A DNA stretch of 64,000 bases from a candidate division FCPU426 bacterium (GCA_027366525.1 DAHXKG010000008.1:26556-90555), one strand, 5' to 3'; positions 3,835-59,225 are shown, counted from the stretch's first letter. Notes: generated from the letters alone by a model not told the origin. Numbers and translations are program-made.

Positions 3835-3917
3835 ATCGTTAAAATTTAAAAAGGATGAATTTAAACTTGGAGAGAACTTGTTATGGTGAAAAGATTTTCT
3901 TGGAAAGTAATTTTTTA

Positions 3918-16056: not shown

Positions 16057-16077
16057 AAAATTTCAAAAGAGGTTTTT

Positions 16078-18672: not shown

Positions 18673-18735
18673 AGTTAAAGTTTTTGAAGAATATGACGTT
18701 AGGTTTATCAGTAAATCTGAAGAAAGAGGTGGCTT

Positions 18736-19143: not shown

Positions 19144-19159
19144 TCTAGGGGAGTAATCA

Positions 19160-19579
19160 GTGGTTCAGCCAGTTAGTTTTAATGGAAAAATTTTTAAAAC
19201 GCAGGATGTGAATGAGACTGCGGTCACTCATCCAACGAGTTTCCCTTCAGTTGCTGGGAAAACCTTGGATACAACTCAACCATTTGAATCCGTTTTGCAA
19301 GGCGTAGTTGGAAAAACAACGGAGTTGAAATTTTCAACACATGCCAAAGAGCGACTTCAGATGAGAAACATCCAACTGGGATCCTCGGATCTAGAAAAAA
19401 TATCAGATGCTGTGAATAAAGCGGCGGCCAAGGGTTCACAAGAATCCTTGTTGGTAATGCATAATAGTAATTTGGCTTTAATTGTTAGTATTAAAAATCG
19501 TACTGTCATTACGGCATTAGACGGATCAAGTATGAAAAATAATGTCTTTACTAATATTGACAGTGCAATCATTGTTTGA
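19160..19579 (+). CDS. small flagellar operon protein between flgD and flgE (Firmicutes-type flgD-flgE interposed family)
   Basis: 139-aa ORF between flgD and flgE, the same position as the small flagellar operon protein of many Firmicutes and Thermotogae. Confidence 0.5.
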   Translation: MVQPVSFNGKIFKTQDVNETAVTHPTSFPSVAGKTLDTTQPFESVLQGVVGKTTELKFSTHAKERLQMRNIQLGSSDLEKISDAVNKAAAKGSQESLLVMHNSNLALIVSIKNRTVITALDGSSMKNNVFTNIDSAIIV

Positions 19580-19653
19580 GGAGTAATATTTCGGGCTGGA
19601 CCTAAATAGGAAGCCTGAAATCAAAACTTTAAGAGTCTTATAGGGAGGCAAAT

Positions 19654-33187: not shown

Positions 33188-34474
33188 ATGGATTTAAATA
33201 TACAGAAAAGAAAACATGGATTCTCATTTGTTGTTTTTTATATTTGGATTTTCAGCTTTGGAATTGGGACAGGGATTGTTTTCTTTTATTTGTTACATAT
33301 AAAAAACTTAAAAAATTGGGTATCCCTAGGGATGTGCATTTTCGTTGGAATTCTTTTTGCCTTTTTAATTTTAGAAATTGTGCAAGTGTTTTTTTTAAAG
33401 CACTTACGATATTTTTCGGAATCCATTCGAAAATTGTCAAATAATTCTGATGCCATGAATCAATCGAGGAATCAATCTAGAAATTTTTTGGAACTACTAA
33501 TTGATTTTGATGTCCTGTTTGGGTACTTAAATGCTTCTTTATCACAATTGAAGTTAACTTCGGATGAAACTCTCAGCCTGGCAAAACAGTTAACGCAAAC
33601 GATTCAGCAGATGCATAGTGCTACGGAAGAAGTTTCTGAAACCGTGCAAAATATTTCTAAAGGTGCCGAGGATCAAGTTCAAAAAGTTCAAGAAGCTTTT
33701 TCAATTATTGACCATATGGCGGGGAGTATTCAAAATTCAACTGAACAATTAAAATCATCCGAAAAAGTTATTTCGCATGCTCGCGGGGCAACGGATTCGG
33801 GTAAACAAGCTGTTCAAAAGGCGATTGCCCAAATGAAAAGTATTTATGATGTTGTTCAATCGTCCTCTAAGGAAGTTAATGAATTGGGATCCCGATCTAT
33901 GGCGATTGGGCAGGTAGTAGACGTGATTACTAACATTGCGGATCAAACTAATTTATTGGCATTGAATGCGGCCATTGAAGCGGCTCGTGCGGGCGAAGCT
34001 GGTCAAGGATTTGCAGTTGTTGCTGATGAAGTAAAAAAACTTGCCGACGGTTCATCAGCGGCAGCCAGTCGAATTGGTCACATGGTTCGGGATATTCAAA
34101 AGGAAATTATTCAAGTTGTTCAGAGTATGAATATTGGGGCTGAAAAAGTTTCAGATGGCATGACAATCGTTGGGAAAGCGGGCGATGCATTATCTGAAAT
34201 ATATTCATCAACTGAAGAAGTGATTCGGCAGGTTCAGAATATTTCCGTGGCATTTGAAAATCAAGCCGAACAGGCTGGAAAAGTAGTGGAAGCCATTACC
34301 AATATTGTTGCTGTCTCTGAGGAGAATGCGGCCGCAACCGAACAAATTTCTGCTTCTACGGAAGAATTAACAGCATCCATGGAATCGGTTTTAGCAGCAG
34401 CGCGTCAATTAGAAGGTGTAGCCCAGCGACTCACCAATTCTTCCATTATTTTCAAAAAAAATACTCGTTTATAG
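33188..34474 (+). CDS. methyl-accepting chemotaxis protein (two TM helices, essentially no periplasmic sensor domain)
   Basis: Highly conserved MCP signalling motif [33 protein letters not shown]. Two N-terminal hydrophobic helices separated by about 10 residues. Confidence 0.85.
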
Positions 34475-35552: not shown

Positions 35553-37364
35553 ATGAAAACGATTTTACATTGGATGGGTAATTTGCATTTGAATTTATCA
35601 AGTGAAGTTAAAAAAGTGATTATAAAAACAAGCATACTTTTTTGGGTATTGAGTGTTGGGTTGTTAACGCTTGGGACATCACAATCCTATGCTTCCCCAG
35701 ATCCATTATTCGTCAATGGAAATGAGGTTGTAACGAGTGCCGGCTGCACGGTTCATCTTCGTGGGGTCGATATTGATAGCATGGAATGGTATGATGGTAA
35801 TGGAGATCCTGGAGAAGGCCCTCCCGGTGGATATGGAGGAACCATTATTGGTTCGGTCCAAGAGGCGGTAACGGCTTGGCATGTGAGTATTATTCGTCTG
35901 CCACTGAATCAAGATTTTTGGTTTGGATGTGGAGGAGCGGGTGCAGTAACTTATCAAGACACTGTGGCTAATATTGTTAATTATTGCTCAACTAATAATG
36001 TCTATGTGATTCTCGATTTACATTGGTCAGGAACCTATGCAGGGCTTGCCACGGCAGGTGCAACCACGTACACCTCACCTTGTTCAGGAGCAGGATGGGG
36101 TACGGCAACGGGGCAGCAATCCATGGCGGACGGAAATGCGGTTACCTTTTGGAGTTCCGTGGCGGCAACGTATGCCAATAATCCTGCGGTTTTATTTGAT
36201 TTATATAATGAACCCTTTGTTTCCAGCTGGTCTGTTTGGCAATATGGTGGAACAACCGGTGGCATACCGGCTTGGACACCGGGGATGCAAGGACTCTTGA
36301 ATGCAGTAAGAGCTACTGGCGCTAATAATATTTGTTTAGCGGGTGGACTGAGTTATGCACACAATTTAACTCAAATTTGCGATTACCCATTAACAAATGT
36401 TGGAAATGGTATTGTTTTTTCTGCCCATATTTATGGAAATCAACTAGGCGATACTTCATCAGGATGGGGGCCTGATATTGATCCGGCAACTGTGTGTGGC
36501 CCAGTATTTATTGGTGAGATGGGACCTTCAACTAGTTGTAATACTAATAATAGTACTTTTGATAGCAATGTTTTTTCGTGGATTGATAACACGACTGGAA
36601 TTATAGGAGGCACAGCATGGTCGATGACTACCACGTCTTGCCCAAATCTTTTGACAAGCTATAGTAATTTTGTTCCAACTTCTTGGGGTATGGCTGTTTC
36701 TACATGGTTAACAACTCCAGTTCCAACATGTGTATCCTCCCCCATCCCCACAAATACGGTAACATCAACTCCAACCATTACGGCAACAGCAACAGTTACC
36801 AAAACACCCACAGTTACTCCCACGATTACACTTACTGGGACTTCAACCGCAACGCTGACGGTTACGAATACGCTAACAATAACACCAACAGCTACACCAA
36901 CGGCAACGTTAACACCAACGCTTACGCCAACATGGACTCCCACAGGAACGATTACTCCACAAGTAACCAATACGGCTACTCCTACAAAAACTCCTACGGT
37001 GACCCCAACCCAGACTCCGACCATAACTCCGACAATAACGTCAACGGTTACGATAACGGCTACTCCATCACTGGTTCAAGACTCTATATCTTATCCATAT
37101 CCGAATCCGCCCGAATTGGGTGGATCAATTTTTGTTCAGATTAAAACAAGTCAAATTTCAACAGTAACCTATTCAGTTTTTACAACGGCATATCGAAAAA
37201 TTTTTGAAAGAGAAGTAGCAATTGATGGAAATGGGATTATCAGTTGGAACTTGTTAGATCAAAATGGAGGCAAAGTTGCCAACGGAGTGTATTATTTAAA
37301 AATAGTTGTTAAAAATCTAAACGAAACATTACAAAGAATCGATAAAATTATTATTATTCAATAA
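35553..37364 (+). CDS. glycoside hydrolase family 5 endoglucanase with a Thr/Pro-rich linker and a Por-type C-terminal sorting domain
   Basis: GH5 catalytic motifs LYNEPF (acid/base) and FIGEMG (nucleophile). A roughly 110-aa TPT repeat linker is present. The C-terminus YPYPNPPELGGSIFVQIK...NGVYYLKIVVKNLNETLQRIDKIIIIQ matches the Por secretion tail consensus. Confidence 0.8.
   Translation: MKTILHWMGNLHLNLSSEVKKVIIKTSILFWVLSVGLLTLGTSQSYASPDPLFVNGNEVVTSAGCTVHLRGVDIDSMEWYDGNGDPGEGPPGGYGGTIIGSVQEAVTAWHVSIIRLPLNQDFWFGCGGAGAVTYQDTVANIVNYCSTNNVYVILDLHWSGTYAGLATAGATTYTSPCSGAGWGTATGQQSMADGNAVTFWSSVAATYANNPAVLFDLYNEPFVSSWSVWQYGGTTGGIPAWTPGMQGLLNAVRATGANNICLAGGLSYAHNLTQICDYPLTNVGNGIVFSAHIYGNQLGDTSSGWGPDIDPATVCGPVFIGEMGPSTSCNTNNSTFDSNVFSWIDNTTGIIGGTAWSMTTTSCPNLLTSYSNFVPTSWGMAVSTWLTTPVPTCVSSPIPTNTVTSTPTITATATVTKTPTVTPTITLTGTSTATLTVTNTLTITPTATPTATLTPTLTPTWTPTGTITPQVTNTATPTKTPTVTPTQTPTITPTITSTVTITATPSLVQDSISYPYPNPPELGGSIFVQIKTSQISTVTYSVFTTAYRKIFEREVAIDGNGIISWNLLDQNGGKVANGVYYLKIVVKNLNETLQRIDKIIIIQ
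36740..37070 (+). repeat. low-complexity ACN/CCN codon repeat encoding the Thr/Pro linker of the GH5 protein
   Basis: Read directly. Produces spurious alternate-frame ORFs (36659..37024 - and 36683..37144 +). Confidence 0.8.
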
Positions 37365-39403
37365 GCGAGTTTTTGGCGAATGTAATTTATTGCCTGTTGG
37401 GCTTGGATGTTATTAGGGTTTATCTGAAGCGTTTTGTGGAACCAATGGACCGATTGTAATAAATTATTTAATTGATAATTAATAACCCCCAAATAATAAT
37501 AAGCGTTTTCAAATTTTGAATTGATTTGAATAGTCTGATGAAGCCAAAATTTGGATTTCTGAAATTTTCCTAAAAAATAATAAGCAATTGCAATTTGAAA
37601 TGAATATTGTGGATTTTGTGGATTCCAATGGTGTGCCCATAGGAATTGGTGCATTCCTTTTTTTATGAGTGATTGGATTTTTAAAGCATTTTTTGGAAAA
37701 GAAGCTAACGCTTTTTTCAATTTCATTGCGCGTTGTATATAATAAGAGCCTAACCAAGTCCGGGCAATCGAATAGTCATTTAAAATAGTAATTCGCGTAC
37801 GATTATCTAAGGAATTATCTGGACTCCTGAAATTGGGAAGTTGCATGGTTTTCCAAATGGAAAGATCTATTTGGGGATTGAAATTTTTATCATCAGTGTT
37901 CAAAAACATTCGTTCCGTGATGCCATAGGGATAAGTTTTTGAATTTTGAAAGTAGGTATGCGGAGAAATATAAAAATTAAAAAAATAACGATGATTTGGA
38001 TTATGGGCAACCATCCAGTGAAATAAGTGTCCATGAATGTACTCTTTTCCATGATGATTAGTGGGATAAAATATTTTTAAATGTGGATGTAAGTGTAACT
38101 GGTCTAATCGATACCAGGCCATCGGTAAGCTTCCTGATCCAAGAACGACTAGATCTTTTCGTTGACCGCGAATTAATTGAAGGTACCAGCATGGGAATTC
38201 AACCGCATCACCTTTACAAAAAAAGAATGCATGACGGGGTAGACTTCTCCAGGCATTTAGAATGTAGTTATACGTATAGGTGTAAAAGGTTTGTTGATTT
38301 TTAATGGTTCGAATATTGATGAGTAAAAACACACAAAATAATGAAATTAAGGAAATTAATCTTTTTTTTCTTTTTAAATAGTTGAAAGAATCGATGAAAA
38401 AATCAAAACCCAAGGCAGAAAATACGACTAAAAAAAACAGAGAACTGATGGAAAAGTTTCGAAGTAAATAAAATTTTGATTTTGGGAGGTTAACATAAGT
38501 TATTAGTACGACGACGAAAGCAATCCAACTGATTGCGAGTCCGGTGATAAAAGTATTTTTTTTCTTCCAAATCCAATAGAGTCCTAAAAGACTAAAGACA
38601 CCTATTCCATAAAATTCTTGGATGCAAAGTTTAAAGTAGAATTCTAACTGTTGAATCCATTTTAATGGCGACCCAAAAATTTCTCGAGAATTTTGGTATT
38701 CCATTCTAAAAACATGGAATAGAAATTTTTTATAATTGCTAGGATCTCCCCAATTAATTAATGGATTTTGTATAGCACGAAGTGGTAAATAAAGATAAGT
38801 GGATAGGGCAATTAGTATGAAAGATAAACCCACAATAATTTTTTTAAAATCAAGTGTTCTTTTTTTATAGATTGAAACGATACTCCAAGTGATTCCAATC
38901 GAATATCCTAGGATGCTCATCCAATGATTGGTAAGCGAGAGTCCCCAAATAAAGCAAAACAGTAAAAATTTTCCTTGTGAAAGAAAATAAAATATTAAAA
39001 TTAAGAATAAGACAGTCAATACATAAATTCCGGTTTTGGCACTTAACGAGGCGGTATAGCTATCGATGCCGGTCATCCAAAGTAGTGAAAAAGTCAAACC
39101 ACAAGTCGTGGAAAGATTTAATCGGTTTTTTAAAAAAAGAAACAGTAACGCACAGACACAAGCAGTGAGAAATGCCGAGAGTAAATTGATCCGAAAACAA
39201 ACTTGTGAAAGGGGAAGTAGGGAGAATAAATGGGCAATGAGAATAAATAGAGGATATCCTGGAGGATGCGCAATGCCTAGAGTAGTGGAGGAAGAAATAA
39301 TTTCTGGGCTATCATCTAAATAAAAAGTTGGATTTAAACCGATTAGACTGTACAAGAATGCACAAAGAAAAATTCCAGAACTAATCCAAAGGTTTCGATT
39401 CAT
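37358..39403 (-). CDS. DUF2723-family polytopic membrane protein (protein O-mannosyltransferase / TMEM260-like) with C-terminal TPR repeats
   Basis: Hallmark N-terminal motif GIAHPPGYPLFILIAHLF. At least 10 predicted TM helices. C-terminal TPR-like repeats (AYYFLGKFQKS..., AYYYLGVINYQLNN...). Confidence 0.7.
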   Translation of the reverse strand: MNRNLWISSGIFLCAFLYSLIGLNPTFYLDDSPEIISSSTTLGIAHPPGYPLFILIAHLFSLLPLSQVCFRINLLSAFLTACVCALLFLFLKNRLNLSTTCGLTFSLLWMTGIDSYTASLSAKTGIYVLTVLFLILIFYFLSQGKFLLFCFIWGLSLTNHWMSILGYSIGITWSIVSIYKKRTLDFKKIIVGLSFILIALSTYLYLPLRAIQNPLINWGDPSNYKKFLFHVFRMEYQNSREIFGSPLKWIQQLEFYFKLCIQEFYGIGVFSLLGLYWIWKKKNTFITGLAISWIAFVVVLITYVNLPKSKFYLLRNFSISSLFFLVVFSALGFDFFIDSFNYLKRKKRLISLISLFCVFLLINIRTIKNQQTFYTYTYNYILNAWRSLPRHAFFFCKGDAVEFPCWYLQLIRGQRKDLVVLGSGSLPMAWYRLDQLHLHPHLKIFYPTNHHGKEYIHGHLFHWMVAHNPNHRYFFNFYISPHTYFQNSKTYPYGITERMFLNTDDKNFNPQIDLSIWKTMQLPNFRSPDNSLDNRTRITILNDYSIARTWLGSYYIQRAMKLKKALASFPKNALKIQSLIKKGMHQFLWAHHWNPQNPQYSFQIAIAYYFLGKFQKSKFWLHQTIQINSKFENAYYYLGVINYQLNNLLQSVHWFHKTLQINPNNIQAQQAINYIRQKLAY

Positions 39404-40840: not shown

Positions 40841-41797
40841 TTGATATGGAAAATGATGAATAACCAACTAGTTCAAAAATATCAATGGATCAAAGAGAGT
40901 TTGGAAAAATACGGTTTACATGTTGAAAATTATCAAACGATTCAATATGGGATACAATTTAAAATTGTGGATAAGAATGGGGCATTCTTTTTGCGAATAT
41001 TTCAAAATAAAAAAAATGGGATCGTAATTGATTATTCCCAAATTCGCTCGGAATTTAAATTGGAAAAGATTAAAAACATTTTAGAGTCTACGCACAAGAG
41101 CGTTGAAACGAATGATGCCGATTTTCTAATTAATTTTCCCGTTATTGGAACCGATGAATCAGGCAAAGGGGATTATTTTGGGCCTTTAGTGGTTGCAGGA
41201 GTTAGTTTGACTGAATCCACAGAAAAAATGTTAAATAAAATAGGTGTTGTCGATTGTAAACGACTAAGTGATGAGATGAATATCAAACTTTCGGAAGCAA
41301 TCTACAAAATATGCGATGACCACGTATCGGTTGTATCGATTTCACCTGAGAAATACAATGAACTTTACGAACAATATCGCATGCGAAATGAAAAATTAAA
41401 TGAAATGCTTTCATCAGTTCATGTCGAAATTATAAAAAAATGCATGTCTCGAATCAACCCTTCAACGATCGTTGTTGATCAATTTGCAAACGAAAGACTT
41501 ATTTTAAGCCAGCTCCACAATGTTGTTCCGCCGGAAGCTCGCTTGATTCAAACGCATGAAGCCGAACGATTTATAGCGGTTGCTGCTGCTTCCGTGATTG
41601 CGCGAGCAAAATTTTTGAACGAATTGGAGTTGTTAAAGGACAAATATCAGTTCCCCTTTCCCAAAGGTGCTTCTCAGGAGGTGATTCATACGGGGATAAA
41701 GTTTGTAAAACAATTTGGGAAACCCTTACTGTCTCATGTCGCTAAGCTACATTTTAAAACAACCGATTTCGTTTTGAATGCTGGGGGCTCCGATTAG
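40841..41797 (+). CDS. rnhC: ribonuclease HIII
   Basis: Catalytic motif VIGTDESGKGDYFGPLVVAGV of the RNase HII/HIII family, plus a roughly 90-aa N-terminal extension characteristic of HIII. Confidence 0.75.
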   Translation: MIWKMMNNQLVQKYQWIKESLEKYGLHVENYQTIQYGIQFKIVDKNGAFFLRIFQNKKNGIVIDYSQIRSEFKLEKIKNILESTHKSVETNDADFLINFPVIGTDESGKGDYFGPLVVAGVSLTESTEKMLNKIGVVDCKRLSDEMNIKLSEAIYKICDDHVSVVSISPEKYNELYEQYRMRNEKLNEMLSSVHVEIIKKCMSRINPSTIVVDQFANERLILSQLHNVVPPEARLIQTHEAERFIAVAAASVIARAKFLNELELLKDKYQFPFPKGASQEVIHTGIKFVKQFGKPLLSHVAKLHFKTTDFVLNAGGSD

Positions 41798-43614
41798 AAG
41801 AAAATGGATGAGAAAAAATAAACATTGTTGGAAAATTGCGAGTAAAACGAAACGGTTGATAAGGTGTGCTGCAATTGATCTCCAATGCCAACATCCCAAA
41901 GATTAATCACCGGGAGCGATAATTCCAGTGTTCCACTTTGGATAATATCAATTCGTGATTGATGAGGTCCAAGAAAAAAAGGATAAATTTGTTTTTGGAT
42001 TGAATAATTTGCATTAATCCCGAATAGATTCCCACCTCCATATTGATAACCTAGGTTGATTGTTTGATCAGTATAATTAAAAGTTGAAGAAAGGGCGTGG
42101 TTATTTCGAAATGTATACGTTAAATTTAGAGCATGAGGACCTGGAAAATAAAAATCAATGGCAATGGAAGTTATCCAACTCTGGTCACTATATCCAGGAA
42201 AAGTCGGGTATCGTTCTTTTAGAAATTGGCCTTGAATTTGGATGAAATCAGGGTTTGTGAATATCCATTGGAAGCCGCCAGAAAATTGAGAATGTTGATA
42301 TTGTAATGTCAGAAACCGATTGTAATATCCAGTGGCTTCATCGAATGCACAGGGAATATAAACAGATGACGAAATTTTAGGTTTAAAATTAACTGCGAGA
42401 TCTTGATAGTAATTTTGAAACGCATGCTGTTGCAATTGTTCATTTAAAGATGCTACGGAACTATAATCAAGACTAAAAAATGAATTCCACCAAGAGGGAT
42501 TATAAATTAAAAATGTTTCAAGATATTCATTATAGGTCCCAGGTTGAACAAGCGGCGGAGTAGTTTGATATTGTTGACCTTGGGTTCTTCCTCCGGTTAA
42601 TCTTGCGTAGAAGTGGAATGCCGATGCTGAAAGTTGGGAAACGCGAACTTCGGCTGGCATTCGATAGGACCCCGCATTTGGAAACCCAATAACGGTATCA
42701 TAGGCCGTTTTAGCTTCTGTAGTATTTCCCGTCTTTTGGTATAAAACACCCAAAGCATAGTAAGCACCAACATAACTAGGTTGAATCGTTAAGCATCGTT
42801 CTAAGTTTTGATAACATTTTTGCCAGTTTTTGAGTTTTAAATAAACAAGCGCTAGATTGAAATATGCGTTGGCAGATTGTAAATCCAGATGGATGGCTTG
42901 ATGAAATAATAAGCTAGCTTTTGAATATTGTTTTGATCGAAAGGCAAGTACACCGGCACGTAATAAGGCTAATATTTGAAATTTCTTTATTTGAGTATTT
43001 TCAAGCTGAGTTTTAATCTGATGAAGAATGATTTGTGCAGGATGATAATTGGGATTTAAATAGATAGAGCGCTGAAGATAGGCCTGAGCAGTTTTAAGAT
43101 GTGTAAGCAGGTATTCACAAATTCCAACCCCGTAGTAGGCGTATGAATTTTTGGGATCATATTGGCAATCTTTGTAGTAAAATCCTGCGGCTTTAGAATA
43201 CTGACCTTGCAGGTAGAGCTGGTTGGCCCATTGCATTAATGAAAATGAGGCATAGGGAACAGATTTTTGATGCAAAAGAAACTTAACACGAAATAACATT
43301 TGTTTGGCATTGATATTTTGGGGATTTAGATGAATAGATTGATTGAGATAAAACAGGGCGCTTTTAAGATGATTTAAAAGATAAGCACAAATACCGATTC
43401 CATAATAAGCATTTGAATTCGAGGGTTCTTTTAAACTAGCGTGATAATAAAATTTTTCTGCTTGAACATAGTTCCCATCAAGGTAAGCCTGATTTCCTTC
43501 AGCCATCCATGAAATGGTTTGTGCACGAACGGAACGAATGTTTATGATTTCTAAAATTATACATACAAGGAAAAAGTATTTCTTATGGGGTATATTTAGA
43601 AAAGAGTATTTCAT
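41794..43614 (-). CDS. secreted TPR-repeat protein with a C-terminal aromatic/Asn-rich domain (putative outer-membrane beta-barrel)
   Basis: Signal-like N-terminus. About eight TPR units with paralogous blocks (AYYGIGICAYLLNHLKSALFYLNQSIHLNPQ / AYYGVGICEYLLTHLKTAQAYLQRSIYLNPN). A roughly 300-aa C-terminal region ends ...VYFFSSIFF (a terminal Phe is typical of OM barrels). Confidence 0.5.
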   Translation of the reverse strand: MKYSFLNIPHKKYFFLVCIILEIINIRSVRAQTISWMAEGNQAYLDGNYVQAEKFYYHASLKEPSNSNAYYGIGICAYLLNHLKSALFYLNQSIHLNPQNINAKQMLFRVKFLLHQKSVPYASFSLMQWANQLYLQGQYSKAAGFYYKDCQYDPKNSYAYYGVGICEYLLTHLKTAQAYLQRSIYLNPNYHPAQIILHQIKTQLENTQIKKFQILALLRAGVLAFRSKQYSKASLLFHQAIHLDLQSANAYFNLALVYLKLKNWQKCYQNLERCLTIQPSYVGAYYALGVLYQKTGNTTEAKTAYDTVIGFPNAGSYRMPAEVRVSQLSASAFHFYARLTGGRTQGQQYQTTPPLVQPGTYNEYLETFLIYNPSWWNSFFSLDYSSVASLNEQLQQHAFQNYYQDLAVNFKPKISSSVYIPCAFDEATGYYNRFLTLQYQHSQFSGGFQWIFTNPDFIQIQGQFLKERYPTFPGYSDQSWITSIAIDFYFPGPHALNLTYTFRNNHALSSTFNYTDQTINLGYQYGGGNLFGINANYSIQKQIYPFFLGPHQSRIDIIQSGTLELSLPVINLWDVGIGDQLQHTLSTVSFYSQFSNNVYFFSSIFF

Positions 43615-43738
43615 TAAAAGCGTTTTTGGGCAAGGATCAAAGTTTAAAAACCTTTCAAAATCACATAAGATGATTTAACAAATTATATCATTGATTAACA
43701 ATTTGATGTAGTTGAGCAGTGTTGTATGTAAATTAAAT

Positions 43739-44407
43739 CTAAGAGTGGTTAAATTTTAAAATTTTCAGACGTAAAACCATTAACTTGTGTTTGAGTGAAG
43801 AACTCGGTGAGCTTTGAAGTGATAAAGCAATTTCTCGTAAGGCCCGTCTTGTCCAATTTAGCTTTTTAAAAAATAAAAATGCTAATGCATAATGAGCTTT
43901 AGCTGAAATTTTAAATGAAAGTTTAATGGCTTTTCGAAATTCTTGAATGGCCGAATGAATATTTAATAATTTATAGTCAATCAATCCTAAATAATAGTGA
44001 ATTAAATAATTTTGAGAGTTGATTTTATTAGCCTGATTGAATTCCTCAAAGGCTGTCTTCAAATGGTTTGAGTCATAATACGTTCTTGCCAAATAGATGT
44101 GACTGAGGAGAAGATTGGGTGAAGCATCATTGACTCGATCAAAGCATTGTTCCGCTGTCTGAAATTGATGTAGGTAGTAAGCCGTCATACCCAAATAAAA
44201 TTGATCCTTTAAGCTGGTGTTGTTTTCTTGAAGAAGTTTTTTAAATACTTTTTCTGCACGATGAAAATGATACGCCTTAAGATATTGTAGGCCAGTTAGA
44301 GTATTGAGAGGTGGCGACATTAATTTTGAATAGGCCAAGTCGTATTTTGAAAAAATGAATAAAAATTCAATGATAAAAAAAAATTTTAAAAGTTTTTTAA
44401 AATTCAT
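43739..44407 (-). CDS. secreted TPR-repeat protein (cassette copy 1)
   Basis: The ORF track gives 43739..44437 with a TTG start. The ATG at 44407 is preceded by GGAG and yields signal peptide MNFKKLLKFFFIIEFLFIFS. Paralogous to 45738..46424 (YLARTYYDSNH.../YLGRTYYDSGH...). Confidence 0.6.
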   Translation of the reverse strand: MNFKKLLKFFFIIEFLFIFSKYDLAYSKLMSPPLNTLTGLQYLKAYHFHRAEKVFKKLLQENNTSLKDQFYLGMTAYYLHQFQTAEQCFDRVNDASPNLLLSHIYLARTYYDSNHLKTAFEEFNQANKINSQNYLIHYYLGLIDYKLLNIHSAIQEFRKAIKLSFKISAKAHYALAFLFFKKLNWTRRALREIALSLQSSPSSSLKHKLMVLRLKILKFNHS

Positions 44408-44419
44408 AATTGAATCTCC

Positions 44420-44459
44420 AAAATAAAAATGGAACAAGGGAGATTAAAAATAATCTCCC
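44420..44459 (-). terminator. rho-independent terminator after the Pro-rich gene (perfect 9-bp stem GGGAGATTA/TAATCTCCC, then a T-tract on the minus strand)
   Basis: Read directly. The minus-strand RNA would be GGGAGAUUAUUUUUAAUCUCCC followed by UUGUUCCAUUUUUAUUUU. Confidence 0.7.
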
Positions 44460-44501
44460 TTGCATACTACCCAAGATAGTAATTATGATGATGAAAAATC
44501 A

Positions 44502-44993
44502 TTAATTAATATCAGCAACCCCAAGCGTGGTGTCGAAAAGTGTTTCAATTTGCTCACCGACTGGAGTTCCAGAAATAGTGGCCTGTGCTTGGAGCGTTGG
44601 AATGATGGTGGGTATGCTTTGAACTAAAGCCTGCACAGTTGGCACTACGGTTAAGTTAACAGTGGGCATTGGTTGAGGTGTGAAGTTCGGATTAGGCGTA
44701 AATACGAACGTCGGGAATGGTTGAGGTGTGAAGTTCGGATTAGGCGTAAATACGAACGTAGGAAATGGTTGGGGTGTGAAGTTCGGATTAGGCGTAAATA
44801 CGAACGTTGGGAATGGTTGAGGCGTGAAGTTCGGATTGGGTGTCCAAACCGGCCTAAAATGATTCCAAAACATCGGATCAGCATTGGCTTTACGACTGTT
44901 TGCTAGCGTAGCTATACCAATGACGGCAATAGCAACCGCAACTAAGCCCACAGACGCTAAAAGCCTGAACAACGACTTTTTTTGACTCTTCAT
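44502..44993 (-). CDS. secreted Pro/Phe/Thr-rich protein with 4 tandem 16-aa repeats (FTPQPFPTFVFTPNPN) - cassette copy 1
   Basis: The ORF track gives 44502..45008 (GTG). The ATG at 44993 is preceded by GGGAGG at a 7-nt spacing. The signal peptide is MKSQKKSLFRLLASVGLVAVAIAVIGIATLA. The conserved C-terminus is PTVQALVQSIPTIIPTLQAQAT...LGVADIN. Confidence 0.65.
   Translation of the reverse strand: MKSQKKSLFRLLASVGLVAVAIAVIGIATLANSRKANADPMFWNHFRPVWTPNPNFTPQPFPTFVFTPNPNFTPQPFPTFVFTPNPNFTPQPFPTFVFTPNPNFTPQPMPTVNLTVVPTVQALVQSIPTIIPTLQAQATISGTPVGEQIETLFDTTLGVADIN
44669..44860 (-). repeat. four tandem 48-nt repeats within the Pro-rich gene
   Basis: GAAGTTCGGATTAGGCGTAAATACGAACGT(C/T/A)GG(G/A)AATGGTTG(A/G)GGTGT units read directly. 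Alternate frames give spurious Arg-rich ORFs (44651..44884 -, 44673..44906 +). Confidence 0.9.
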
Positions 44994-45059
44994 AATGGGT
45001 CCTCCCACTAAATTTTTATTTAATGCAAGATCTCTTCAAAGACCTTGATCGTGATATAG

Positions 45060-45074
45060 GCATGATTTATGCCA
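45060..45074 (-). promoter_or_regulatory. candidate sigma-54 (-24/-12) promoter for the Pro-rich gene copy 1: TGGCAT-AAATC-ATGC
   Basis: Minus-strand reading gives TGGCATAAATCATGC. GG and GC sit at the canonical 12-nt offset, about 55 nt upstream of the ATG at 44993. A sigma-54-dependent regulator is encoded 1.4 kb upstream on the same strand. Confidence 0.45.
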
Positions 45075-45167
45075 AAAGTTGATGGAAAATAGTGGAGAGG
45101 TTTTCGTTTAACTTTTTTAAAATATGATTAAATTTAGTTAATGCTGATTAAAATTGGGCGGCTTGTT

Positions 45168-45599
45168 TTATTTGCTATCAATGTCTTGAACGCCCAAAAC
45201 ATCTTGATTGGGCAAGTTTTTAGTTAAATCATGAATGGGAGTTGGGTTAGCGGTTGCTCGAGCTTCAAAAGTTGGAATCATCACTGGAATGAGTGTTGCC
45301 AACGCCTGAACAGTGGGGATTTCAGTTGGGTTTACAATAGGTTTATTAAATGACTCAATAGGGGGAACAGGCGTTACTTGAACTGTTATACAAGGCATGG
45401 GCGTTGGAAGAAGAGTCGGAATGGGTTGTGGAATCCAATATGGAATAAGATATGGTGTAGGAAATGGAGTCAGCATGAAGGGGTGCAAAGGAGAGTCTAA
45501 TTCTGGATAAAAAAACTGGGCTTTTAACGTTGATTTTAAGCCCAAAATAAGAACAATTGCTAAGAGACTTCCTAAAACTAATAATTTTAAATTTTTCAT
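45168..45599 (-). CDS. secreted Pro-rich protein - cassette copy 2 (paralog of 44502..44993)
   Basis: The ORF track gives 45168..45605 (TTG). The ATG at 45599 is preceded by GGAG. The signal peptide is MKNLKLLVLGSLLAIVLILGL. It is Pro-rich (PFPTPYLIPYWIPQPIPTLLPTPMP) and has the same conserved C-terminal block PTVQALATLIPVMIPTFEARAT...LGVQDID. Confidence 0.65.
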   Translation of the reverse strand: MKNLKLLVLGSLLAIVLILGLKSTLKAQFFYPELDSPLHPFMLTPFPTPYLIPYWIPQPIPTLLPTPMPCITVQVTPVPPIESFNKPIVNPTEIPTVQALATLIPVMIPTFEARATANPTPIHDLTKNLPNQDVLGVQDIDSK

Positions 45600-45650
45600 C
45601 TTCAAACTCCATCACATCCTTACATTACTTTATATGCAAACATGAAAATA

Positions 45651-45666
45651 TGCAATAATAATGCCA
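45651..45666 (-). promoter_or_regulatory. candidate sigma-54 (-24/-12) promoter for the Pro-rich gene copy 2: TGGCAT-TATTA-TTGCA
   Basis: Minus-strand reading gives TGGCATTATTATTGCA, one mismatch from the consensus TGGCAC-N5-TTGCA, about 40 nt upstream of the start. Confidence 0.5.
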
Positions 45667-45737
45667 AACGTTTTCCTAAATTGATTTTAGCTTGTAAATT
45701 TCATTGCAGAAAAACAGTTTAAAAAATTTATCAATGA

Positions 45738-46424
45738 TTATTGAATTTTTTTAAGTTTGTTTAAGATCTTAGCTCTTAATTTTAAAGCTTTCAAACGCAG
45801 AGGAGGGTCAATGAAACAGTGAAATATTTTGTTAAGTTCATATAAAGCAACAGAGATTTTTTTTTCTTTGTAATAAAATAAAAACGATAAGGCATAATAT
45901 GCTTTGGCCATGGTAGGATCAAGCTGAACAGCTTGCCGAAATTCATGAATCGAAACGGCTATTTTTTTAAACTTATAGTCAATCAGTCCTAAATAATAGT
46001 GAATAATTGAAATTTGAGCATCCAGTTTATCCGCAATCTCGAAATTTTTTTGTGCCAAATTAAAATGACCGGAGTCGTAATAAGTTCGACCTAAATAGAT
46101 ATAGTTCATCGGCATGGCTGGGGAATGAGCTTCAACCCAGAGAAAATTTGTTTCAGCTGTTAAATAGTTGTGGAGATAGTAGGACGAAACGCCAAGATAA
46201 AAATGCGCTCCTGTATTGGTTGAATTAAAGGTTAAGACTTTTTTAAAATCATTGGATGCTTTTAAAAAATGGTACTGTTTAAGATTTTTAATCCCAATCA
46301 GGAAATCCTTGCGAGCTGTTTTTTTAGAATAAGACGCCAAGGATAGGGATGGAATTATAGCGAGTATAAGGGATAGAAGGAAAATTTCTAAAGTGATGAA
46401 AAGTAATTTGGCTTTAAAGCTCAT
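45738..46424 (-). CDS. secreted TPR-repeat protein (cassette copy 2)
   Basis: Signal peptide MSFKAKLLFITLEIFLLSLILAIIPSLSLA. Paralog of 43739..44407. The start overlaps the stop of the response-regulator gene. Confidence 0.6.
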   Translation of the reverse strand: MSFKAKLLFITLEIFLLSLILAIIPSLSLASYSKKTARKDFLIGIKNLKQYHFLKASNDFKKVLTFNSTNTGAHFYLGVSSYYLHNYLTAETNFLWVEAHSPAMPMNYIYLGRTYYDSGHFNLAQKNFEIADKLDAQISIIHYYLGLIDYKFKKIAVSIHEFRQAVQLDPTMAKAYYALSFLFYYKEKKISVALYELNKIFHCFIDPPLRLKALKLRAKILNKLKKIQ

Positions 46425-47775
46425 GGCAATAATTTTCTAAGTGGTATTTTAAAATCTTGTATTGTAATGCTGAGCGAGAAAAACCCAAATCTTTTGCAGC
46501 ACGACTTTGATTACCATTGTTTTTCTGCAATGCTTGTAAAATAAAGGATTTTTCAATTTCTTCTAAAGTTTGGGTTAGCGTGCCCTTCCATAGCGTAGAG
46601 GTAGAAGTTGTCGGGGTGGTGGATGTGGGTTCGGGCGAAATATTTAACAGGGAAGTTCCATCAGAGAACACGACTGCGCGCTCCAGTGTATTTTGTAATT
46701 CTCGTATATTTCCAGGCCAGGAATAGTTTTGAAAGGCTAGAAGTGATTGAGGGTTCAATGGAATGCGTGATTTAGAGGTTTCTCGAAAAAACTTTTCCAG
46801 AAAATGATCAATGAGCAAGGGCAAATCTTCAAGACGTTCGCGAAGCGGGGGGAGGTTGATTTGAGCAACATTAAGACGATAAAAGAGGTCTTCGCGGAAT
46901 AAGCCTTTTTCAACTTGGAGCTTAAGATCTTTATTTGTTGCAGCTACGACACGCAAGTCGATCTTTATGAGGCGACTTCCACCAACCCGTTCAAATTCCT
47001 TTTCCTGAAGAACTCGCAGAAGTTTGACCTGAATTTCTGGAGAAATTTCACTGATTTCATCTAAAAATAATGTTCCGTTTTGAGCTAACTCAAATCGTCC
47101 TATTTTCGAGTAGTTGGCTCCGGTAAAGGCTCCTTTTTCATGCCCAAATAATTCTGATTCCAAAAGACTTGGGGCCAGTGCCGCACAATGCACGCGAATT
47201 AGCGGGTTTGTTTTCCATGGACTGGATTCGTGGAGTGCCTGAACAACCAGTTCTTTTCCAGTGCCACTTTCGCCAGTAACTAAAACCGTAGTCTTCGTTG
47301 AGCTTAGCTTGCGAATATTTTCATAAATTTGAAGCATGATAGGGCTATTGCCGATCATTTTTCCCTGATAATGTGAAAGTTCATCTTTGAGTCGACGATT
47401 TTCAATTTTAAGTGTTCGAACTTGAAGACTATTTTGGATTTTCAGGTGTAATTCATCCATTGAAAAAGGTTTGATGATAAAGTCAGAAGCACCTAAACGC
47501 ATCGACTGTACAGCATCATCAATGGTTCCATAGGCAGTCATGATCAAAACATTCAGTTCCGGATCAATTTCTTTGGAAGCTTTTAAAAGGTCAAGACCGG
47601 TAAAACTAGGCATTTTTAAATCAGTTAATAATAAATCAATATGATTTTTTTTTAAAATCTCTAAGGCTTGAGCTCCCGAAGTCGATATGGTTACTTGATA
47701 CCCTTGGTCGGTTAAATATTGTTCAATGACATCGCACATATCTGATTTGTCATCAACAACAAGGATGTTGCTCAT
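46414..47775 (-). CDS. sigma-54-dependent two-component response regulator (NtrC family: receiver + AAA+ + Fis-type HTH)
   Basis: Receiver ILVVDDKSDMCDVIEQYL...DLLLTDLKMP. Walker A VLVTGESGTGKE. GAFTGA motif. The C-terminal HTH is SRAAKDLGFSRSALQYKILKY. A Thr/Pro linker (PEPTSTTPTTSTST) precedes the HTH. Confidence 0.9.
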   Translation of the reverse strand: MSNILVVDDKSDMCDVIEQYLTDQGYQVTISTSGAQALEILKKNHIDLLLTDLKMPSFTGLDLLKASKEIDPELNVLIMTAYGTIDDAVQSMRLGASDFIIKPFSMDELHLKIQNSLQVRTLKIENRRLKDELSHYQGKMIGNSPIMLQIYENIRKLSSTKTTVLVTGESGTGKELVVQALHESSPWKTNPLIRVHCAALAPSLLESELFGHEKGAFTGANYSKIGRFELAQNGTLFLDEISEISPEIQVKLLRVLQEKEFERVGGSRLIKIDLRVVAATNKDLKLQVEKGLFREDLFYRLNVAQINLPPLRERLEDLPLLIDHFLEKFFRETSKSRIPLNPQSLLAFQNYSWPGNIRELQNTLERAVVFSDGTSLLNISPEPTSTTPTTSTSTLWKGTLTQTLEEIEKSFILQALQKNNGNQSRAAKDLGFSRSALQYKILKYHLENYCHEL

Positions 47776-49226
47776 TTTGAAAGATCCTTTTGATATGAAA
47801 AAATAAGTTGAAAAATGGCTCCACCTTCTGGTCGATTTAGTACATGGATAATGCCTTTGTGAGCACGGATTACTTTATCAACAAAAGCTAGTCCAAGTCC
47901 AGTCCCGGAAGATTTGGTACTAAAAAAGGGTTTAAATAAATTGGGACGTATGGCATTAGAAATTCCAGGCCCAGTATCTTCAACACTTAAAATGGCCTGT
48001 GAATTTTCTGATTGTAATCGCAAAGTCAACGTTCCGCCGGTGGGCATTGCTTGAAGTGCATTAATTCCTAGATTTAATAAGCCGCTGCTGACAAGCGTCG
48101 TGTCAACAAGAAGGGGAGCACAAGGTTCAATAGCAGTGATGATCGCCACATTTTGTTTTTGAGAGAGTTGGAGTAATGTCTCTTTGAGATTGAGTATTAA
48201 TTCATTTAAATTAACAAGCTTAAGTTGTAATTGAAGGGGACGGCTATATTCTAAAAATTGGGTTACTAAACTATTTAAAGCTTGAACTTGATTTTGAATT
48301 TTATGAGCTGCCATAGCAAGATCAGGAAGTGTTTCAATTTTTTTTTCAATCCACTCGGCTTGTCCACGAATAACACTTAATGGATTTCTTACTTCGTGTG
48401 CAATCCCAGCCGCAATTTCTTTTAAATCTTGAGCAAGGCGTTCTAATTCGGATTCTCGATTTTGAATGCGTGCAGACATAATATCGAGCGAGTGTATCAA
48501 GGTGCCCAGTTCGTCAATACGAGTAGTTTTAATTGAGGGGGGATAGTTGCCAGCAGCAATGGAGTGAGCGAGATGGGTAATCTCCTCAACCGGCTTTAAT
48601 ACCGTTTGCGCAATAAAAGTGTTAAGAAAAGTAATAATAATAAGTCCAATAATACCAAATAGGAAATAGATATTTCTAAATTGACGAAGGCTATCCAAAT
48701 AACGTGGATTTGCATCGACCTGTAGAATCCAGTGATGGATTTTTAATGGAATAAAAGCAGATTGGTGAAGTAATCCAAAACTACCCCGATGAATTGGAAG
48801 GCAAATAGCATGCCCATGTCTGAGTTGGGTCAGTGTTTGGTCATTTAAAACGTCACTTTTAAATCCTTCAATCGCTTCTCCGGTAGAGTCCTTTAAGACA
48901 ATTCCATGGGAATTTAAGATTAAAATATTTTCAAAAACTCCAGCTTTTAAAAGGGCTTTCAATTGTTTGGAAAAATGACGAACAGTTGGAGATGTATTTA
49001 AAACATCAGGTTGTAAATAGGGGGGTAATTGAGGAGAAATGCTTTGAGCAACAAGCCGACCCGCAGCAAGTAGCTGATTTCCCATTTTGGTTTCTAGCGT
49101 AGTTACGATCATGCGATAAATAACGATACCCGTAATTAGCGAAAATAATAACCAAAGTGAGGCATAGAGTAGAAGTAATTTGGTTTTGAAGGATTGTCTT
49201 AATCGTTGGATTAGGGACATGAACAA
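47772..49226 (-). CDS. membrane-bound sensor histidine kinase (two TM helices flanking a ~150-aa periplasmic domain, HAMP, HisKA, HATPase)
   Basis: H-box AAGIAHEVRNPLSVIRG. G-box GTGLGLAFV. TM helices LLLLYASLWLLFSLITGIVIY and IYFLFGIIGLIIITFL. Its stop overlaps the response-regulator start. Confidence 0.85.
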   Translation of the reverse strand: MFMSLIQRLRQSFKTKLLLLYASLWLLFSLITGIVIYRMIVTTLETKMGNQLLAAGRLVAQSISPQLPPYLQPDVLNTSPTVRHFSKQLKALLKAGVFENILILNSHGIVLKDSTGEAIEGFKSDVLNDQTLTQLRHGHAICLPIHRGSFGLLHQSAFIPLKIHHWILQVDANPRYLDSLRQFRNIYFLFGIIGLIIITFLNTFIAQTVLKPVEEITHLAHSIAAGNYPPSIKTTRIDELGTLIHSLDIMSARIQNRESELERLAQDLKEIAAGIAHEVRNPLSVIRGQAEWIEKKIETLPDLAMAAHKIQNQVQALNSLVTQFLEYSRPLQLQLKLVNLNELILNLKETLLQLSQKQNVAIITAIEPCAPLLVDTTLVSSGLLNLGINALQAMPTGGTLTLRLQSENSQAILSVEDTGPGISNAIRPNLFKPFFSTKSSGTGLGLAFVDKVIRAHKGIIHVLNRPEGGAIFQLIFSYQKDLSK

Positions 49227-49677
49227 GAACCTTTTTAAATGAGTCCCACTTAAATTTTATTGAGATTTCCAGTTGCCAATCTATACTCTATATGTTGAAA
49301 CAATTATTTTAAGTTTATATGGACTAAAACAACTTGTCAAGCTGTTGCACAGACACGCGATTGAATTCACAAGTTTTTAAAAATCGCATTGAAATTCGAT
49401 TACAAAAATGTCATAAGCATGGATTCGAATTTTTATCATTTGAAATGCTTAAAAATTTTAGATGTATATAAGGATACGATGTTGATGATTCAATGGAATC
49501 GATTCCAGACGGAGGATGAAAAATTTCCACTTCAGTATTATTTTGAGAGTAAAGCTGAGATGTTAAATCATAGCGGATAGGCAAACGTAAACGTTCAGGA
49601 TGCAAAAGATAGTCACCAAGGCATTGCCGGCATGGATAAAAAACAACGTACCTTAGAGTGTTACGGTACGATTGGAG

Positions 49678-50175
49678 CTATTCACTCAAGTTTAACAAGG
49701 GTAAACTAAATTGACTTAGAATATCATGCTTTTGATTGGACGAAATAATTCGATCAAGTTCGGGGAATAAGAAGTGATCTTCCCGTACGGAATGATGTTC
49801 AATCAGCTCTCGACATCGATATTCAATATCGAGGACATTCAAGGTATTTTGATCATGAACGTTAAATTGCAACCACGAATTTAAGAGCCCATTTATTTTA
49901 TCGAGAAATTGAAGGATTTTTTGGTGTTCACCTAAAAAAATTTTCACGGATCCACCTCGAATAGATTTCCCAATTTCTTCATAAAGAGGAAAAAGCCATT
50001 CTTCTTCTTCTGCAATATGCTTTTTGATAAATGCAAAATACGCATTAAAAAAATTCAAGGCTTGAGTGCGATTCCCATTGAGAACACAGAGTTGGTGCTG
50101 ATAAAAAATATTTTCCATATGAATATGGATAATATTTAAATCTTGAAAGCTTTTGAAAATACATTCTTTGGACAT
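49678..50175 (-). CDS. hemerythrin-like (HHE cation-binding) domain protein
   Basis: Repeated H..E...LFP motifs (HIAEEEEWLFPLYEE and EHHSVREDHFLFPELD). Confidence 0.55.
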   Translation of the reverse strand: MSKECIFKSFQDLNIIHIHMENIFYQHQLCVLNGNRTQALNFFNAYFAFIKKHIAEEEEWLFPLYEEIGKSIRGGSVKIFLGEHQKILQFLDKINGLLNSWLQFNVHDQNTLNVLDIEYRCRELIEHHSVREDHFLFPELDRIISSNQKHDILSQFSLPLLNLSE

Positions 50176-57344: not shown

Positions 57345-59225
57345 ATGAGTTTAGAAGCCTTATATACAGGAGTTTCAGGCCTTCAAGCTACAAGTACTTG
57401 GATGGATATCATTGGGAATAATATTGCCAATAGCAATACTGTTGGATTTAAAAGCAGTCGTGCTATGTTTTCAGAACAGCTAACTCAATTTTTACAATAT
57501 GGAACCAGTCCAAATAATCAATCAGGTAATGGGGGGACGGATTCAGAAGTAATTGGTCTGGGAACGAAACTTCAGGATATTCAAACATTGTTTGTTCAAG
57601 GCCCTACCTTGGAAACGGGTATTTCAACCGACATATCCATTCAAGGCAATGGATTTTTAATTGCTAAGCAAGGCAATCAGACCTATTTAACTCGGGATGG
57701 GCAACTGTCATTTGATGCGAATGGCAATTTGGTAAATGCCTCAGGGGAGCTCATACAGGGATATACAGCGGTGCCTCAGTTTCTAAAAACAGGCCTAAAT
57801 ACCTATTCCAATATTCCAGGACAACCTGCTTTGATTACGGATGCCTCTCTAACGCTCAATACCACAGGAACCATTGGCAATATTCAGATTCCTCAAGATT
57901 TAACCATGCCGCCTAAAGCCACTTCGGAGATTAATTTTAGTGGCAACTTGGATGCATTGCAGCAAGCTAATCAACCTGGTGGAATCGTTGATTTATTTCC
58001 GGGCTTTCCGGCTCCCAATGCTTCGCCGTCCTTGCCATTAGGTTTGGATTTAGCTTATTTTGGGCCTGTAGGCTTAAATCCCCAAAAGGCCCAACCTATT
58101 ATTTTGCCGGGGGGAGGAATTGCAATTCAACAAGTGGGAAATTTAGCAGGTCCAGCCGCTCCAGGATCCTCAACGGTGGAGCCAGTAGTATTGGGTGCGG
58201 TAAATTTAGGGTTCGTTAAAGCCTTTAATAATTTTGCGTGGGATCAAAATCCGCCGATTCCACCTGCCGATGAAACCTCAACCACGGTCTATGATTCGTT
58301 GGGTAACCCGCATCAAATTACCTTTCTCTTCTACCAAGTCAATGATTTAGGTTCCGCAGGTGTCAATAACCCCAATGGGCCTAATCAAGTCGCATATGCG
58401 TGGTATGCGTTTGATACCACGGGGGGCCAAAAACCGACAACAGCAAATTTGTTGGGTGGAACTGGCATTTGGGAAGGTAATTTGTCCAATCCAGGTGGGT
58501 TGACGTTTTATGACCGAAACCAAAATAATTTTTATTTTGGAGATTTGCTCTATTTCAATACGGATGGTTCTTTGGCATCTACCGGTGGTACAGAAGGAAT
58601 TGGAGGACCGGGAGGACTAGCATATCCATCAATTCCTGAAATTTATCTTCCTCCATTCAATTCCAATCCTCCCGTGTCACCGATTCCAACGGATGGTGCG
58701 GAAATTATGGGGATCCAAATTAATTTTGGGACGCCCGGGGTTTTAACACAAGGACAACGAAATGGGTTAATTAGTGATGCGGAAGGCAGCTATCAGGTAA
58801 AAAATGGACAGCAAGTTTATATTCCACAACAAACCGCGTACGTTTCATCACAAAATGGATATCCCGATGGGCAATTAGAGAGCTTGAGTTTTAATCAGAC
58901 TGGTGTAATTCAAGGTGCATTTTCGAATGGTCAAAATGTAAGCTTGGGGCAAGTTGCTTTAGCCAATGTTGAAAATACGGGTGGCCTTAATGCAAATGGA
59001 AACAACCAGTTTACTACCTCGACCAATTCAGGAGCAACTTTTGAAGGGTTGGCAGGACAAAATGGATTGGGGCTAGTCCAGGGAGGAACTCTGGAAGGCT
59101 CTAATGTGAATTTAGCAACGGAACTTTCGAATATGATTATAGCCCAAGAAGCCTTTAATTCAAATGCTCGGACAGTTACAACTGTTAACCAAGTCCTAAA
59201 GGTTTTAGATCAACTCGGTCAATGA
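57345..59225 (+). CDS. flgE: flagellar hook protein FlgE (copy 2, paralog of 19654..21483)
   Basis: N-terminus YTGVSGLQATSTWMDIIGNNIANSNTVGFKSSR and C-terminus GGTLEGSNVNLATELSNMIIAQEAFNSNARTVT. Shares long internal blocks with copy 1 (LFYQVNDLG.AG.N.P......QVAYAWY.F.TTGG). 626 aa with no Cys. Confidence 0.85.
   Translation: MSLEALYTGVSGLQATSTWMDIIGNNIANSNTVGFKSSRAMFSEQLTQFLQYGTSPNNQSGNGGTDSEVIGLGTKLQDIQTLFVQGPTLETGISTDISIQGNGFLIAKQGNQTYLTRDGQLSFDANGNLVNASGELIQGYTAVPQFLKTGLNTYSNIPGQPALITDASLTLNTTGTIGNIQIPQDLTMPPKATSEINFSGNLDALQQANQPGGIVDLFPGFPAPNASPSLPLGLDLAYFGPVGLNPQKAQPIILPGGGIAIQQVGNLAGPAAPGSSTVEPVVLGAVNLGFVKAFNNFAWDQNPPIPPADETSTTVYDSLGNPHQITFLFYQVNDLGSAGVNNPNGPNQVAYAWYAFDTTGGQKPTTANLLGGTGIWEGNLSNPGGLTFYDRNQNNFYFGDLLYFNTDGSLASTGGTEGIGGPGGLAYPSIPEIYLPPFNSNPPVSPIPTDGAEIMGIQINFGTPGVLTQGQRNGLISDAEGSYQVKNGQQVYIPQQTAYVSSQNGYPDGQLESLSFNQTGVIQGAFSNGQNVSLGQVALANVENTGGLNANGNNQFTTSTNSGATFEGLAGQNGLGLVQGGTLEGSNVNLATELSNMIIAQEAFNSNARTVTTVNQVLKVLDQLGQ

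Follow-up and report, generated by a model that had tools for sequence, protein, structure and literature searches.

Porins for exopolysaccharides that carry tetratricopeptide repeats (TPRs) have barrels of 16 to 18 strands, and their polysaccharide substrate comes from neighboring synthases. In type 11 secretion, a periplasmic TPR domain is combined with a 14-stranded barrel, the cargo gene is adjacent, and the cargo, which depends on Sec, is variable in its N-terminal part and is targeted by a conserved C-terminal part (PMC8406197; PMC12282271). The locus described here lies at positions 41794-49226 of a 64-kilobase (kb) stretch of DNA from a candidate division FCPU426 bacterium; this whole stretch is referred to as the window. 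It encodes a sensor kinase, an NtrC-type sigma-54 activator, two small periplasmic TPR proteins (TPR1 and TPR2), two secreted proteins (Pro1 and Pro2, referred to as cargo) and a 606-amino-acid protein with N-terminal TPRs and a C-terminal barrel domain. These genes are a conserved, unannotated set that is kept as a unit. We put at about even the chance that they specify a self-contained, signal-inducible pathway which brings intrinsically disordered proteins of low complexity onto the outer membrane or past it.

Related loci were found on metagenome contigs, numbered L007-L018. L007/L008, L010 and L011 share one gene order: kinase, activator, small TPR protein, cargo and TPR/barrel protein. 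The shorter contigs L012 and L014 start within the activator gene and agree with this order from there on. Identity of the orthologs to the window proteins is about 50% for the kinase (49-53% in L007, L010 and L011), 61-63% for the activator, 35-42% for the small TPR protein and 37-40% for the barrel protein. The guanine-plus-cytosine (GC) content of the related loci is 49-57%, compared with 38% in the window. Conservation over a GC range of 38% to 63% led us to reject the possibility that the genes are spurious open reading frames (ORFs). The 606-amino-acid protein is also encoded on metagenome contigs 99.9% identical to the window. A scan of 185,579 species-representative genomes, a set which left out the window itself, gave only two matches, both in metagenome-assembled genomes labeled candidate division FCPU426. 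This division has been linked to Goldbacteria, described as cellulose degraders of the rare biosphere (PMC7031533). No description of the module was found in the literature.

The TPR/barrel protein and the secreted cargo

The 606-amino-acid protein has a signal peptide and matches TPR_2 (E 2e-23) and other TPR models over residues 33-310. Its N-terminal TPR module is internally duplicated (residues 33-115 and 124-205), as it is in the relative P0011 (662 amino acids); most relatives, of about 490-530 amino acids, have a single copy. The barrel family was recovered only by an exhaustive HMMER search with the C-terminal 293 residues, in which just 13 of 1.84 billion cluster representatives were found to belong to it, all of them with N-terminal TPRs and the same C-terminal domain with its aromatic end. 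Word-index searches gave no match for the barrel domain and one match for the barrel profile; no match to the profile was found among PDB sequences, and none by tblastn against plasmids.

The AlphaFold2 model of the barrel domain, built on a 12-sequence alignment, shows 14 antiparallel strands (predicted local distance difference test score, pLDDT, 85.7; predicted template-modeling score 0.80); a single-sequence model of the full 606-amino-acid protein was uninformative (pLDDT 39). The initial annotation of the window had put this domain forward as a candidate outer-membrane barrel and had named a soluble domain, beforehand, as the refuting outcome; with 14 modeled strands, the soluble alternative was not borne out. 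The best structural matches were the 14-stranded channels CymA and OmpG, at identities of only 8-10%, which is evidence of fold and of nothing further. A separate observation was made in L010 (2151-4540), where a 273-amino-acid secreted protein, its N-terminal part rich in Pro and Thr, overlaps the beginning of a 523-amino-acid protein which ends ...LQFDVAF and looks like an outer-membrane barrel. The two directly precede the kinase gene of the module, and they may represent a further cargo with its barrel.

Every complete cargo protein has a Sec-type signal peptide followed by a variable, low-complexity body; the Pro-rich bodies contain 21-34% Pro and 10-17% Thr and are nearly uncharged. Conservation is concentrated at the C-terminus. 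A Pro/Thr/Ala block of about 45 amino acids, PT[VL][QE]A[LI]...P...PT[FL][QE]A.AT, was found in seven cargo proteins, and at the extreme C-terminus stands L-x-[VAI]-x-D-I-[DN], with 0-2 residues after it. In the window, Pro2 (21% Pro in its mature part, with a Sec signal peptide) ends ...PTVQALATLIPVMIPTFEARATANPTP...VLGVQDIDSK, and Pro1, which also has a signal peptide, ends ...PTVQALVQSIPTIIPTLQAQAT...TLGVADIN. In L007, L010, L011, L012, L014 and L018, exactly one ORF per locus has the DI[DN] end with its 0-2 further residues, and it is always the neighbor of the barrel gene. This holds even for L018, where the barrel is 22-28% identical; there, the downstream secreted protein has a Pro-rich N-terminal part and ends ...ELTADDIDR. 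A flagellar rod-like ORF in the window (7603-8394, plus strand), ending ...ATQVGDINA, fits the tail pattern as well and was judged a chance match because it has neither the upstream block nor the genomic context.

The initial annotation had described the locus as a duplicated cassette of TPR and Pro/Phe-rich proteins, and this description stands in part. Pro1 and Pro2 are 37% identical (E 8e-14), and C-terminal identities separate the cargo into subtype A (Pro2, L007, L012 and L014) and subtype B (Pro1, L009 and L015). The two therefore have closer relatives elsewhere than in each other, and the window holds a representative of both ancient subtypes, not a recently duplicated gene. The small TPR gene, by comparison, does look duplicated: TPR1 and TPR2 are 45% identical (E 6e-46) and are each other's closest relatives. 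TPR2, which has a signal peptide and no lipobox, is the ortholog of the single small TPR gene of the related loci, and TPR1 looks like a lineage-specific paralog of TPR2. The family signature comprises HYYLG, KAHYALA and a basic C-terminal helix. As to composition, the window proteins are indeed Pro-rich, but the partial subtype-B cargo proteins of L009 and L015 have Ala/Thr/Gln/Glu repeats, so that proline richness is common without defining the family; the conserved features are the C-terminal block and the tail. The tandem repeat of Pro1 has a period of 48 nucleotides and 94% matches. Where four perfect 16-residue repeats had been reported, we found three perfect FTPQPFPTFVFTPNPN units with partial or degenerate flanks, while the underlying DNA repeat is real. 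Three assemblies that are otherwise 99.94-99.99% identical carry 3.5, 4.5 and 5.5 copies; an assembly ambiguity is possible, since two other contigs break inside the repeat.

The cargo fits no recognized family, as had been suggested from the window sequence. No cargo protein had a match in Pfam or NCBIfam, a word-index homology search of 5.8 billion proteins with Pro2 retrieved only Pro2 itself, and a profile of the tail block found no match among PDB sequences. With the C-terminal profile, no further cargo-like ORF was retrieved from the window or the related loci. Several known classes were considered and rejected. The calcium loop of dockerins and EF-hands, D-x-N-x-D-G-x-L-x-x-x-D, fits the tails of L007 and L012 only and is thus not general. 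Type IV pilins were set aside because the cargo N-termini are ordinary Sec signals with AXA-type cleavage and no class III leader (G/FTLIE). The PEP-CTERM/exosortase system (PrsK/PrsR/PrsT) was rejected on scores below cut-off (PrsR, 388 bits compared with 503; PrsT, about 40-52 compared with 312), and no C-terminal transmembrane helix was found in the cargo and no exosortase gene nearby. About 2.4 kb from the barrel gene, at 37358-39403 on the minus strand, the window encodes a 681-amino-acid multi-pass membrane protein with C-terminal TPRs and a TMEM260_N/DUF2723 domain, of a GT-C-type family of protein O-glycosyltransferases. The Pro/Thr-rich cargo could be its substrate, but no homolog was seen in the examined parts of the related loci.

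The sigma-54 switch and the cargo promoters

The kinase has two transmembrane segments around a periplasmic region of about 145 amino acids, followed by the domains listed in Table 1, and a sigma-70-like promoter, TTGACA-17-TAAACT, lies upstream of its gene at 49312-49340. The activator has the receiver (Response_reg, E 1.5e-29), the AAA+ domain (Sigma54_activat, E 2.4e-68) with the GAFTGA loop and the Walker A sequence GESGTGKE, and the DNA-binding helix-turn-helix (HTH_8, E 8e-14) of the NtrC type, in agreement with its initial assignment. Its best NCBIfam match, AtoC, scored 483 bits against a cut-off of 714, and it is therefore not an equivalog of any named regulator. The proposed translational coupling to the kinase is reflected in a 4-nucleotide ATGA overlap of the two genes, and the TPR2 start overlaps the activator stop by 11 nucleotides, as had also been noted.

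The eight parts which the initial annotation had listed for the locus were all found in their places, including the terminator after the Pro-rich genes. All the genes are present, but for three of them the likely starts are the ATG codons at 45599, 44993 and 44407, which are backed by gene calls on near-identical contigs, and not the TTG or GTG codons upstream. The sigma-54 elements reported before both Pro-rich genes were confirmed. The 64 kb contain exactly two copies of TGGCAT-N5-WTGC, each in the correct orientation and 52-66 nucleotides upstream of a Pro-rich start; 0.34 occurrences are expected from shuffled sequence, and 5 of 100 shuffles had at least two. The promoter is shared by the orthologous cargo genes of L007, L010, L011 and L012, where TGGCA[CT]-N5-TTGC(T) is found 50-65 nucleotides upstream. 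In L007, L010 and L011 the strict pattern has a single match each, namely the cargo promoter, and in L014 the sequence at the same position is CGGCAC-N5-TTGCT, with one mismatch.

A second element is conserved farther upstream. Aligned, it reads approximately CC.AATTT..GGCA.CC...CC.AAAATTTG.ACAT, and its right half lies at -60 to -61 from the -24 box in Pro1, L010, L011 and L012; L007 has one mismatch. The Pro2 site, at -63, fits the element less well than that of Pro1 and overlaps the end of the TPR2 gene. We read this element as a candidate activator-binding site. Downstream, Pro1 has a strong terminator hairpin, and a canonical intrinsic terminator lies on the 3' side of every cargo gene, with the position conserved in all related loci. 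A GGGAGG ribosome-binding site precedes the Pro1 ATG. Extended -10-like elements, TGnTATA(A/T)T, precede the barrel gene in L007, L010, L011, L012 and L014, as matches to the consensus only. This arrangement points to cargo transcripts that are inducible, made at a high level and for the most part monocistronic, with the putative export components expressed separately.

Some variations around the module were also noted. L012 has another sigma-54-like element at 648-662 (TGGTATAAGAATTGC), in front of its small TPR gene, so that this gene, too, may be sigma-54-dependent in some lineages. In L007 (5028-5414) and L008 (4596-4982), the small TPR gene and the cargo gene are separated by an inserted gene for a PilZ protein, a cyclic di-GMP receptor, which has a sigma-54-like element of its own upstream, TGGTACAAGAGTTGC; the insertion hints at a link to a switch between motile and attached states. 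In the window, a hemerythrin-domain protein (49678-50175, minus) is encoded directly before the kinase gene, in the same orientation, and could be a sensor of oxygen, nitric oxide or iron feeding the system; L007 has a small Cys-rich protein at this position instead. In L014, the barrel gene is followed by genes for a 149-amino-acid protein and a second HAMP/HisKA kinase (3906-5713), and hence a second sensor adjoins the module in that lineage.

Table 1. Coordinates of the genes, domains and predicted regulatory elements of the locus in the window
Feature	Coordinates	Strand	Basis or remarks
Sensor histidine kinase	47772-49226	minus	HAMP, HisKA, HATPase_c (Pfam)
NtrC-family sigma-54 activator	46414-47775	minus	Response_reg, Sigma54_activat, AAA_lid_14, HTH_8 (Pfam)
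TPR2, small periplasmic TPR protein copy 2, 228 amino acids	45738-46424	minus	
Weak candidate activator-binding site of Pro2	45717-45752	minus	AT-rich, AAATTT half-site at -63
Sigma-54 -24/-12 promoter of Pro2, TGGCATTATTATTGC	45652-45666	minus	pattern match
Pro2, cargo subtype A, 143 amino acids from ATG	45168-45599	minus	
Candidate activator-binding dyad of Pro1, CCCAATTTT-N-AAATTTAATCAT	45124-45158	minus	
Sigma-54 -24/-12 promoter of Pro1, TGGCATAAATCATGC	45060-45074	minus	pattern match
Pro1, cargo subtype B, 163 amino acids from ATG	44502-44993	minus	
48-nucleotide tandem repeat inside Pro1, 3.5 copies	44670-44837	minus	
Intrinsic terminator 3' of the cargo genes	44434-44463	minus	13-bp stem, then T run
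TPR1, small periplasmic TPR protein copy 1, 222 amino acids	43739-44407	minus	
Extended -10-like element TGATATAAT upstream of the barrel gene	43682-43690	minus	consensus match only
606-amino-acid TPR/barrel protein, ending ...SSIFF	41794-43614	minus	
Periplasmic TPR domain of the 606-amino-acid protein	42685-43518	minus	Pfam
14-stranded outer-membrane beta-barrel domain, aromatic beta-signal end (...VYFFSSIFF)	41797-42618	minus	AlphaFold2 model

Elsewhere in the window, flagellar genes are found at 13870-21483 and 57345-59225, with FlgK-like, FliK-like and two long FlgE/hook-like products (609 and 626 amino acids), and a gene for a methyl-accepting chemotaxis protein at 33188-34474, from which it follows that the host is motile. 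The strict sigma-54 motif is missing from all of these flagellar and chemotaxis genes. At 3855-6020 (plus strand) is a 721-amino-acid ORF for which no Pfam match was found, and adjacent to it, at 6010-7587 (plus), is one of 525 amino acids with a single fn3 domain.

Proposed function and alternatives

In the pathway that we consider, the kinase would sense a periplasmic cue and phosphorylate the activator, which would bind the AT-rich dyad about 60-85 nucleotides upstream of the -24 box and open the sigma-54 promoters of the cargo genes. Because each cargo transcript ends at a strong terminator, cargo could be made in large excess. The barrel gene would be transcribed from its own sigma-70-like promoter, probably constitutively. 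Cargo would cross the inner membrane by the Sec pathway; its C-terminal block and acidic tail (...L-x-V-x-D-I-D-x-COOH) would then be bound by the small TPR protein, by the TPR domain of the barrel protein, or by both, and the 14-stranded barrel would translocate the cargo or anchor it at the cell surface. There, the length-variable Pro/Thr/hydrophobic repeats may serve as a surface coat or adhesive; the initial annotation had suggested an extracellular fiber, matrix or adhesin. We infer the binding, the translocation and the surface role from the co-occurrence of tail and barrel, from the architecture of the proteins and from the precedent of type 11 secretion. A more specific version, which we regard as a tentative proposal and rather doubtful at present, is a previously unrecognized export system, unrelated by descent to DUF560, whose TPRs read the acidic tail and thread disordered cargo through the barrel.

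Several observations weigh against such a pathway. No RpoN box was found within the window. When 12 members of the barrel family were compared with Pfam at E<=10, neither DUF560/PF04575 nor any other Pfam barrel was matched, and the full 606-amino-acid protein gave no PF04575 match either, so that homology to Slam is unproven. The cargo has no C-terminal 8-stranded barrel of the TbpBBD type and is not a lipoprotein, which distinguishes it from the cargo of Slam. The 45-amino-acid block is reduced to the tail alone in the cargo of L010 and L011 (...LPNEKLGAKDIDE), L018 has no adjacent sigma-54 system, and the neighbors of the more distant barrels of L016 and L017 have no tail. Finally, the modeled 14-stranded barrel could equally be a solute channel.

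Three other explanations were weighed. The best of these, which we think unlikely, is that the proteins form a periplasmic tether or scaffold: the Pro-rich spacers would stay in the periplasm, the acidic tails would dock on the TPRs of the barrel protein, and the outer membrane would thereby be linked to another layer of the envelope, as part of envelope remodeling under stress sensed through the sigma-54 system and with no export. In TonB and TolA, the periplasm is typically spanned by spacers of this kind, extended, uncharged and rich in proline; the TPR domains are periplasmic, tail and barrel occur together, and translocation is itself a proposal. However, no membrane anchor, lipobox or peptidoglycan-binding domain was found in the cargo, and the predicted excess of cargo, which has its own promoter and terminator, together with the strain-variable repeats, better fits a product of the surface or matrix.

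We regard as improbable a second explanation, in which the barrel is an uptake channel resembling CymA and OmpG, for oligosaccharides for example, in a cellulose degrader, and its neighbors are accessory or unrelated. The best structural matches are indeed these sugar channels, and the window has a GH5 cellulase gene about 4 kb away. Yet matches of the 14-stranded fold at such low identity are no guide to function, and in the other loci the module includes no such cellulase. We know of no porin layout in which a large periplasmic TPR domain is fused on, and the strict co-occurrence with tailed secreted proteins, across barrels of 22-40% identity, would be left without explanation.

The least likely of the three is an exopolysaccharide porin like PgaA, BcsC or PelB, with the Pro-rich proteins as matrix partners: the combination of TPRs and barrel and the PilZ gene inserted in the L007/L008 module would suit such a role, but the barrel has 14 strands and not 16, the NCBIfam model of BcsC scored 15.6 bits against a cut-off of 858, and no synthase, glycosyltransferase or deacetylase gene was found in any conserved locus, so that the likeness to PgaA or BcsC export drawn in the initial annotation is a poor one and we consider this role very improbable.

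If the pathway to the cell surface exists as proposed, the linear C-terminal signal would be easy to test and to transplant. The module would also offer a first functional handle on the envelope biology of an uncultured lineage related to FCPU426 and Goldbacteria, and its barrel, small TPR protein and tailed cargo are three new protein families which current databases leave unannotated.

Comparison with described systems

The regulatory half of the module recalls PilS/PilR. Both combine a kinase and an NtrC-family activator with a sigma-54 promoter, a gene for a small, abundant secreted structural protein (in the module, as predicted) and a terminator, and in both there is a TPR accessory protein (PilW/PilF in the case of pili). 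The module differs in that its cargo has a Sec signal and not a class III pilin leader, and in that no secretin, ATPase or platform gene was found in it. With PgaA, BcsC, PelB and AlgK/AlgE, the module shares periplasmic TPRs joined to an outer-membrane barrel for an extended, unfolded polymer; its barrel has 14 strands, in contrast, and their synthase genes are not in these loci. Recognition of the tail would have a parallel in the carboxylate clamps of TPR proteins, which bind C-terminal acidic peptides, as in Hop/CHIP with EEVD, or in PEX5 with SKL. Here too a short motif at the extreme C-terminus (D-I-D/N-x-COOH) occurs alongside TPR proteins, by analogy only.

As judged from genes and models alone, the module appears to resemble Slam and type 11 secretion more than it resembles PgaA or BcsC. 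As in Slam1/2, NilB, HrpB and HsmA, N-terminal TPRs are followed by a barrel of 14 strands (modeled, in the present case), the cargo gene adjoins the barrel gene, and the cargo is predicted to be Sec-dependent, with a variable N-terminus and a conserved C-terminus. The differences are nonetheless distinct. The module proteins show no sequence match to PF04575, the cargo is disordered and of low complexity with a short, linear acidic tail, and the module adds a free periplasmic TPR protein and a dedicated sigma-54 two-component switch. The host, moreover, is not a proteobacterium, the closest genomes being those of candidate division FCPU426. Little is understood of how the outer membrane, with no energy source at hand, is crossed by unfolded or disordered proteins, and to our knowledge type 11 secretion has so far been characterized essentially in Proteobacteria and with folded-barrel cargo. 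If the proposed pathway is correct, the combination of TPRs with a 14-stranded barrel would extend to a candidate phylum, to a new class of cargo and to a linear C-terminal signal.

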